A DNA stretch of 64,000 nt from Escherichia phage EC.P1: sequence record PQ657772.1. The stretch is one strand, 5' to 3'. A program made the position numbers and the translations under genes. Below, one piece after another: positions 8,230 through 8,580 of the stretch (positions within the stretch are counted from its first letter, which is position 1; every line of letters starts with the position of its first letter). Below the pieces are notes generated by a model. The model searched no databases. It worked only from the letters and a program-made list of their open reading frames with translations, and had not been told where the DNA came from.

Positions 8230-8580
8230 AACTTTAATTAAAAAAATGGATGGTGACGCTTTTAAACGCCGCTGTTAATTCAGCTTTATAACCACCCGTT
8301 TTAACTTGCCTTTCGGCTACCTTGACGTGGGGCGTACAGGCTACTAAAAGCAACTACTGTAAACATATTTCCACGCCTTACCCTTTTAAATAAAAGTCCA
8401 TCCGGTTTTCCAGTTTGGTGAAGGATAGTCACCTCTAGTTTAAACCTGCTAGTCAAGTAATAATTGCCTATCGTCCAATTATCAAACCCGTCTAGGTTAA
8501 CATTCACCACTTCCTAGAGTACCAGAGATCTTGTTCTGGATTGCATCGACGTAACTTACACCATATACGTCTGATTGTGG
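8230..8580 (-). ncRNA. candidate structured leader or ncRNA (about 350 nt, relatively GC-rich)
   Basis: No credible ORF; several local hairpins (ccagagatcttgttctgg, ctagg...cctag, gcctttcggc); lies between promoter at 8586-8614 and gene start 8223. Confidence 0.25.

Follow-up and report, generated by a model that had tools for sequence, protein, structure and literature searches.

The interval from 8230 to 8580 of the window, a 64,000-nucleotide stretch of Escherichia phage EC.P1 (PQ657772.1), probably holds two independent small RNA genes and not a leader, and comparison with related phages suggests that their products are discrete, stable RNAs that act in trans. We call these RNAs module A (8583..8393, minus strand) and module B (8381..8240, minus strand). 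The initial annotation, which was made from the sequence of the window, had described a single leader of ~350 nt between a promoter and the next gene. The promoter-RNA-gene layout that it described is correct, but the interval contains two RNA modules, with a terminator-like structure and a U7 run behind them.

The minus strand is the orientation of the genes and tRNAs around positions 8230 to 8580, and it is also the strand of the sigma-70-type promoter of the RNA unit (8614..8586). This promoter, which had been placed at 8586..8614 in the initial annotation, is near consensus, with TTGACT, a 17-nt spacer containing TG, and TATAAT (11 of 12 consensus matches). The interval is indeed GC richer than its surroundings, as had been noticed, with a GC fraction of 0.405 compared with a window mean of 0.349 (standard deviation of 0.032 for windows of 351 nt), and only the top 3.4% of windows of this length reach such a value; the GC fraction of the two genes that flank it is 0.31. 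The several short hairpins that had been seen there are also real and are conserved across homologues. In BLAST comparisons, the EC.P1 region is 91 to 100% identical to Asteriusvirus jumbo coliphages (WPEC3, fEgEco12, PBECO4, and 121Q), and the interval shows higher conservation than the flanks and splits into two halves. The gene downstream of the RNA unit (7846..8223, minus strand, start at 8223) encodes a 125-aa protein (phrog_38341). This gene is not part of the RNAs, it is kept in G17-type phages that have neither module, and it is reached by transcription through read-through only. A search for informative domains in the proteins that flank the RNA unit found none.

The mechanical ORF list contains ORFs of 69, 39, and 27 aa within the interval. 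The 69-aa ORF (8510..8301) is the longest of these, it appears as a "hypothetical protein" in several GenBank records, and automatic annotations overlap it in some records. However, the probability that the interval encodes a small protein is close to nil. The 69-aa frame is broken in 6 of the 8 homologues examined, by stops or frameshifts in RaK2, PM2, SdyM006, Mm5, L030, and L046b (there is a stop at codon 3 in PM2 and SdyM006 and at codon 17 in RaK2, and there are frameshifts in Mm5 and L030), which refutes a small-protein gene. The frame also straddles two modules that occur separately, and the substitutions found within it are compensatory in RNA helices. By comparison with relatives, the interval has no coding potential: no conserved small protein gene is present, and the earlier reading that there is no credible ORF over the ~350 to 360 nt before the gene at 8223 stands.

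Covariation and fold of module A

Module A is a structured RNA of ~190 nt for which comparison gives seven helices and three pseudoknots. There is a single copy in the window (238.7 bits with covariance model R1), and the length of family members ranges from 182 to 202 nt. The helices were derived by sequence comparison and were afterwards tested by counting pairs. MAFFT aligned 13 sequences without manual input, and in this alignment pairing holds in 99.2% of cells and compensatory changes occur in 17 of 50 pairs, compared with 4.8 compensatory pairs in shuffled controls and 0 to 3 when the structure is slid by 1 to 3 columns. A covariance model built on this 13-sequence alignment recovers every divergent member of the family, at 18 to 94 bits.

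Since the 5' helices of the most divergent members come out misplaced in both MAFFT and covariance-model alignments, six divergent sequences were aligned by hand, helix by helix, with N padding. Comparative alignment for compensatory substitutions had been proposed as a check in the initial annotation. In the resulting set, with 19 sequences drawn from six phage lineages, pairing holds in 97.1% of 975 cells, and compensatory changes are seen in 31 of 53 pairs and in 128 cells. Hand alignment to the proposed structure inflates these counts over the 5' half of the six rows that diverge most, and many of the compensatory cells are inherited and are not independent events, since the sequences form only about six clades. 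Shuffled controls for the 19 sequences have 16.6 compensatory pairs and 29.5 compensatory cells, and the observed value was reached in 0 of 500 shuffles. Sliding the structure reduces pairing to 26 to 41%, with 4 to 10 compensatory pairs and 11 to 22 compensatory cells. Two further sequences (L010 and L011) that MAFFT shifted out of register are outside the 19-sequence counts and were counted separately by a script. Structural covariation is therefore abundant in module A. Of the two outcomes that the initial annotation had named as refuting its reading, a small protein gene conserved in related genomes and a lack of structural covariation, neither was observed. A fold computed from the single sequence of module A is no more stable than those of shuffled sequences (z-score of -0.79), and its minimum free energy structure differs from the comparative one, so the structure of module A rests entirely on sequence comparison.

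The 5' part of the RNA consists of PK1 and three hairpins. In PK1, the 5' strand CCAC (8580..8577) pairs with GUGG (8510..8507) in the loop of P3 (100% paired, 2 of 4 pairs compensatory), and divergent members have CCUCA/UGAGG, GCAC/GUGC, CUACA/UGUAG, or ACUCAU/AUGAGU at this position. P1 (8575..8566 with 8553..8545) is 100% paired, with 7 of 10 pairs compensatory, and has a conserved GGYG in its loop. P2 (8539..8535 with 8526..8522; 95.5% paired, 4 of 5 compensatory) is a variable hairpin that differs in length among members and is missing in L010. P3 (8518..8513 with 8496..8491), the loop of which is the 3' strand of PK1, is 99.1% paired, and all 6 of its pairs are compensatory.

An invariant CGG(G) (8490..8487) precedes P4 (8483..8459; 94.1% paired, 5 of 8 compensatory), and the P4 loop, GACGAUA(N)G (8475..8467), is invariant as well. 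PK3 (8458..8456 with 8446..8444) is formed when the start of the P4-P5 linker pairs with the P5 loop; its 3 pairs are 100% paired in the 19 sequences, and 2 of the 3 are compensatory (AU/CG; CG/AU/GC). PK3 is interleaved with P5 (8452..8449 with 8438..8435; 100% paired), and together they make a compact H-type pseudoknot (8435..8458), located at the core where conservation is highest, in which the loops UGA and CA are invariant and the third, A-rich loop is invariant only at its last two A residues. The position of PK3 is unambiguous, as it lies within the 3' half, where MAFFT alone yields the same alignment. When further covarying long-range pairs were scanned for, most of the signals were noise due to the clades; PK3 was the exception. 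P6 (8433..8429 with 8421..8417) is 100% paired, and its loop (8426..8423) pairs with the 3' tail (8399..8396) to form PK2 (97.4% paired, 2 of 4 compensatory), in which UCC/GGA is exchanged for CCC/GGG, among others, and the next pair is AU, GC, or UA. P7 (8413..8410 with 8405..8402, within 8396..8433) is a weakly supported helix, with 84% pairing and 0 compensatory pairs, and is the exception among the 10 elements of module A, 9 of which have compensatory support. A search by eye for other partners of the invariant CGGG and of P7 found none.

The 19-sequence alignment has 194 columns, 60 of which are invariant; 46 of these 60 are in the 3' domain, and most are unpaired 3'-domain positions. G-U pairs are conserved as well (e.g., columns 103/128 in 16 of 19 sequences). 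These would be A-C mismatches on the other strand, which shows that the fold is that of the minus-strand transcript. As compared across lineages, module A appears as a compact two-domain RNA whose 5' end (PK1) and 3' end (PK2) are both in pseudoknots.

Distribution and modular arrangement

We found module A in ~70 of 50,697 GenBank phage records and in about a dozen viral or metagenomic contigs. Apart from a few environmental contigs, its range is limited to virulent phages that infect Enterobacterales and Aeromonas. T4-like phages of Proteus, Morganella, and Shigella and T5-like phages of Proteus carry module A alone, at 84 to 93% identity, and Klebsiella phage KP13-16 and the Aeromonas phage-65-like phages have more distant copies. 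The EC.P1 copy is 94.8% identical to the copy in RaK2, the flanking ORFs of which cannot be aligned, and is 92% identical to a Proteus T4-like copy, the flanking genes of which are unrelated. No copy of module A is present in 5,426 complete E. coli genomes or in 72,556 plasmids, and there was no true match in 185,579 bacterial and archaeal species (one genome each). Pattern scans of metagenomes and of the species genomes, as well as two of the three IMG/VR scans, gave mostly chance matches, including ~40 in one Ruminococcaceae coding sequence, and added ~12 true members.

In EC.P1, module A stands behind its own promoter, and tRNAs lie ~1.2 kb downstream. In genomes where module A lacks a promoter of its own, it fills a gap of ~200 nt between two co-oriented tRNA genes. 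This is the case in Bragavirus (tRNA-Gly/A/tRNA-Asp), Novosibvirus, and KP13-16 (tRNA-Leu/A/tRNA-Ser, as in Proteus phage 1) and in the Aeromonas phage-65-like phages (tRNA-Pro/A/tRNA-Thr). Module A lies within a tRNA transcription unit, co-oriented with a tRNA that it abuts, in PM2, SdyM006, Mm5, Proteus phage 1, KP13-16, avDM6, L019, L020, L046, and EJP2. The comparison also suggests sharp boundaries: the 5' edge is 0 to 2 nt past the encoded CCA of the upstream tRNA in six contexts, and the 3' edge is 7 to 16 nt before the following tRNA. The exceptions to the tRNA-A-tRNA layout are Mm5, which has a coding sequence upstream of module A, and the divergent L010, which has no tRNA downstream.

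Several of these loci have features of their own. A metagenomic contig (L046) carries two diverged copies of module A (2102-2283 and 2419-2607, minus strand) that flank a tRNA-Arg(ACG) and have many compensatory differences. Environmental contigs that are 259 kb and 866 kb long have an A-like RNA (L010 4375-4558, which equals L021 4096-4268) in which PK1, P1, P3, P4, and P5 are kept and a different hairpin replaces P6, P7, and PK2; a tRNA with a CUA (amber-reading) anticodon is found near it (L010 1096-1169). In the Aeromonas phage-65-like phages, an extra conserved two-hairpin module of ~90 nt lies between module A and the next tRNA (L019 2140-2228, L020 13033-13119, and L006 2582-2668). The record of Morganella phage vB_Mm5 (L007, PP397179.1) puts the tRNAs opposite module A, while ARAGORN puts them on the strand of module A.

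Module B is a second structured RNA, composed of a long 5' hairpin (8377..8324), a GAAA-capped hairpin (8317..8308), and a three-way junction that resembles a branched terminator (8297..8248, minus strand), which is followed by a U7 run (8246..8240) just before the gene. The z-score of its minimum free energy fold is -3.2 in EC.P1 and -3.0 in RaK2, which has the same fold, and 0 of 200 shuffled sequences were as stable. RNAalifold gives 39 consensus pairs, of which 5 are compensatory, for seven sequences from three lineages. Module B is restricted to Asteriusvirus, RaK2-like phages, and one metagenomic contig (L030), and it has its own promoter in RaK2, L034, and L030.

The closing helix of the three-way junction, GGGUGGU/ACCAUCC, is directly followed by the U run. 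This branched module recurs alone directly after tRNA-Ser in RaK2 (L001 4092-4150) and directly after tRNA-Arg in L034 (1757-1815), and it is also found after a third structured RNA domain just upstream of module A in RaK2-like phages. The recurrent copies carry compensatory changes. In 4 of 5 RaK2/L034 copies, a promoter-like TTGAC or a gene start comes next; the copy upstream of module A runs into module A. Like rho-independent terminators, the branched module has a G+C-rich closing helix and a U run at the ends of RNA transcription units, but instead of a simple hairpin it has a conserved three-way junction with two inner hairpins and a UUAUAAA... junction. A scan for simple terminators did not detect it. 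Judged from sequence, the 3' domain of module B has the GC-containing stem, the U tract, and the position at the end of a unit that characterize an intrinsic terminator, and we read the three-way junction as a putative branched intrinsic terminator that closes RNA-gene units.

Two observations on RaK2 (L001) concern the same region. The third structured RNA domain lies at 2334-2497, between tRNA-Gly and module A, and ends in the branched terminator. In addition, ARAGORN finds three tRNA genes (1804-1891, 2258-2333, and 4202-4279) that are missing from the GenBank annotation.

The two modules also vary independently of each other. EJP2 has the promoter, module A, and tRNA-Ser and is without module B. 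JNE01 has module B alone, directly behind the shared promoter, and in RaK2 a promoter is inserted between modules A and B. The existence of variants with only A, with only B, or with a promoter between them shows that A and B are independent modules. In G17, phAPEC6, and Sharanji, the promoter is kept and both modules are absent. When the G17 sequence itself is read, the first 36 nt of module A are left and run straight into the downstream gene. This stump shows that both modules were originally present, were later deleted, and are dispensable. Neither module is essential, as G17-type phages live without both.

Relation to known RNAs and alternative explanations

In the window, neither module matches any of 4,227 Rfam families, either at the gathering thresholds or at E-values of up to 10, and a search of six loci with divergent homologues at E-values of up to 1 returned only tRNAs and noise. 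Thus, the search of RNA family models that the initial annotation had suggested was run, and no Rfam family was matched. In Rfam 15 and in full-text literature searches, we found no description of the module A RNA. By sequence and fold, module A is a new RNA family, and we rate it as a probable new RNA class.

By niche, the nearest relatives of module A are ROOL, GOLLD, and the T4 RNAs rnaC and rnaD. ROOL and GOLLD are structured multi-pseudoknot RNAs of phages and prophages that are often near tRNA islands (PMC12286853). They form multimeric cages and are ~500 to 800 nt or longer, whereas module A is ~190 nt. We reject membership in either family, as no Rfam model matches and module A has 182 to 202 nt compared with >500 nt. 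The T4 species 1 and 2 stable RNAs (rnaC and rnaD) are, like module A, small, encoded in a tRNA cluster, co-oriented with it, and start right after a tRNA, and they have the same genomic niche as module A in the T4-like Bragavirus phages. However, rnaC ends in a tRNA-like T-arm that module A is without, and length and fold differ as well. The module A model, run with filters off, scores at best 3.6 bits over the T4 tRNA region, and we reject homology with rnaC and rnaD.

The PK3/P5 core also invites comparison with small RNAs that are built on minimal H-type pseudoknots, such as preQ1-I/II, SAM-II, guanidine-III, fluoride, HDV-like, and hatchet RNAs. In the small H-type pseudoknot aptamers and ribozymes, this design builds ligand sites or active sites. 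PK3/P5 is likewise minimal, with invariant connecting loops and an A-rich third loop. In contrast to these RNAs, it sits inside a much larger RNA with no regulated gene behind it, and no Rfam model of these classes matches at E-values of up to 10. The self-cleaving classes (hammerhead, twister, pistol, hatchet, HDV-like, and glmS) were rejected specifically, with no Rfam match at E-values of up to 10. By analogy, invariant junction and loop nucleotides around a tiny pseudoknot would fit the pattern that is shown by ribozymes and ligand-binding RNAs.

Our preferred explanation, two RNA genes with products that act in trans, would work as follows. The promoter at 8614..8586 would drive minus-strand transcription of modules A and B, and this transcription would stop at the branched terminator and U7 run (8297..8240). 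Where module A lies between tRNA genes, it would be freed as a discrete, stable, nuclease-resistant RNA by the enzymes that trim the tRNA precursors; in EC.P1, its ends, as predicted from sequence, would be defined instead by its own promoter start and by termination. Module A would then act in trans, by binding a conserved host component or a small molecule or by catalysis. Since the cassette has moved between unrelated phage families, its target is presumably not specific to one phage, and since the transfer has occurred across very different proteomes, we infer as the partner of module A a host component, a small molecule, or the RNA itself, and not a phage-specific protein. Among the options raised in the initial annotation, a stable structured RNA is the one for which covariation and the position within the tRNA arrays of other phages give strong support.

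The initial annotation had also offered a riboregulatory leader. In this reading, module A, module B, or both would be a riboswitch, an attenuator, or a processive antiterminator (put- or EAR-like) that governs read-through into the 125-aa gene or into the tRNAs downstream. The local geometry does fit, with the order of promoter, RNA, terminator-like structure, and gene and with no separate promoter for the gene, and the conserved pseudoknot core with its invariant loops is aptamer-like; the terminator of module B could also be conditional. However, in most lineages module A is followed within 7 to 16 nt by a tRNA, and not by an ORF or an expression platform, and the presence of either module is independent of the other and of the 125-aa gene, so a riboswitch or cis-leader class was rejected for module A. 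Moreover, in EC.P1 the branched terminator lies between the RNAs and the 125-aa gene, the same terminator also stands alone after tRNAs, and no riboswitch family in Rfam matches. We therefore regard a cis-acting leader as unlikely. It is possible for EC.P1 alone, but it fails to explain the family. A ribozyme, which could cleave itself at its own 5' edge past the CCA of the tRNA or could act on tRNAs, also seems improbable to us from the sequences at hand. In its favor, the 5' edge lies 0 to 2 nt from CCA in six contexts, the three pseudoknots and ~46 invariant, mostly unpaired positions in the 3' domain are reminiscent of small ribozymes, and the presence of the cassette in unrelated phages suggests self-sufficiency. 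On the other hand, the junction varies in sequence (AUU, UUA, AA, and AAA), module A is also found directly behind a promoter or a coding sequence with no upstream tRNA, and no known ribozyme family in Rfam matches.

An element that is conserved as double-stranded DNA (e.g., the target of a homing endonuclease, a site of recombination, or an origin) is very improbable. A gene for an HNH homing-type endonuclease does lie ~560 nt downstream, and the cassette has clearly moved between phages, but the strand-specific G-U pairs and the compensatory changes in 9 of 10 helices point to RNA, and the endonuclease is unlinked to module A in other lineages. A decayed tRNA, an intron remnant, or another nonfunctional relic, an option that the initial annotation had left open, has even less to recommend it and can be set aside with near certainty. 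There are tRNA neighbors, as well as a tRNA-like gene with no D arm nearby (9557-9635), but ARAGORN and Rfam, which call the five neighboring tRNAs, find none over 8230-8590, and the result is the same for the divergent homologues. Neither ARAGORN nor Rfam gives any similarity to a tRNA or an intron, module A is better conserved than the neighboring genes, and its pairing is maintained by covariation across six lineages. Group I and group II introns in particular were rejected, since no model matches at E-values of up to 10 and the flanks of module A are a promoter or a complete tRNA with CCA on one side and a complete tRNA or module B on the other.

Within the preferred explanation of trans-acting RNA genes, we tentatively suggest, as a possibility that we hold with some doubt, that module A is a new functional RNA machine, either a natural ribozyme or an RNA that binds a conserved host factor or metabolite with high affinity, carried on a 190-nt cassette that would move between unrelated virulent phages (jumbo, T4-like, T5-like, and others) via their tRNA islands. 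One example of a role that such a machine may have is that of a decoy in the contest over tRNAs and translation. We know of no function for the non-tRNA RNAs of phage tRNA islands (T4 rnaC and rnaD, ROOL, and GOLLD). Module A is a small and tractable addition to these RNAs, with three pseudoknots, a sharply conserved core, and clear boundaries, and the fact that unrelated phage families have exchanged it suggests that its activity is self-contained and of use in many backgrounds. Natural deletion variants (G17 and JNE01) allow comparison, and the hosts (E. coli, Klebsiella, Proteus, and Aeromonas) are genetically easy. Phage tRNA islands are now regarded as counterdefense loci; for example, one report describes neutralization of the PARIS system by a T5 tRNA (PMC11464382). 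In ~70 GenBank phage genomes, module A is unannotated or is overlaid by a spurious protein call. The branched terminator is a second reusable element and is missed by simple terminator predictors.

Other elements of the EC.P1 tRNA region

ARAGORN and Rfam place five tRNAs in the neighborhood of the RNA unit (5707-5778, 6877-7215, and 9640-9729). The one at 7124-7215 (minus strand) is called by ARAGORN as a tRNA-Ser with the unusual anticodon ACT, and the G17 record annotates this gene in the same way. Directly after tRNA-Ser(UGA) is the tRNA-like gene at 9557-9635 (minus strand), in which the D arm is absent, the variable arm is long, and the anticodon loop is CUUCUAA (UCU, Arg). It scores 32.6 bits in a local Rfam scan (gathering cutoff of 29) and was missed both by ARAGORN and by the Rfam search of the whole window.

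Between the RNA unit and the tRNA cluster there is a homing-type endonuclease gene with NUMOD4 and HNH_3 domains (7277-7834, minus strand), which is a plausible driver of cassette exchange in the region. Three tandem, overlapping, paralogous ORFs of 54 aa (MTHEEWM...; phrog_10970) are located at 9046-9532 (minus strand), and a fourth 54-aa paralogue of phrog_10970 is found at 10865-11035 (minus strand), 1.3 kb from the other three. Near-identical strong promoters are repeated along the tRNA region, at 9035..9008, 8614..8586, and 7254..7226, all on the minus strand. TTGACT is found in these repeated promoters, those at 9035..9008 and 8614..8586 both have AAATAGTTCAGTACTG before TATAAT, and behind each there is a short unit of small genes or RNA genes.
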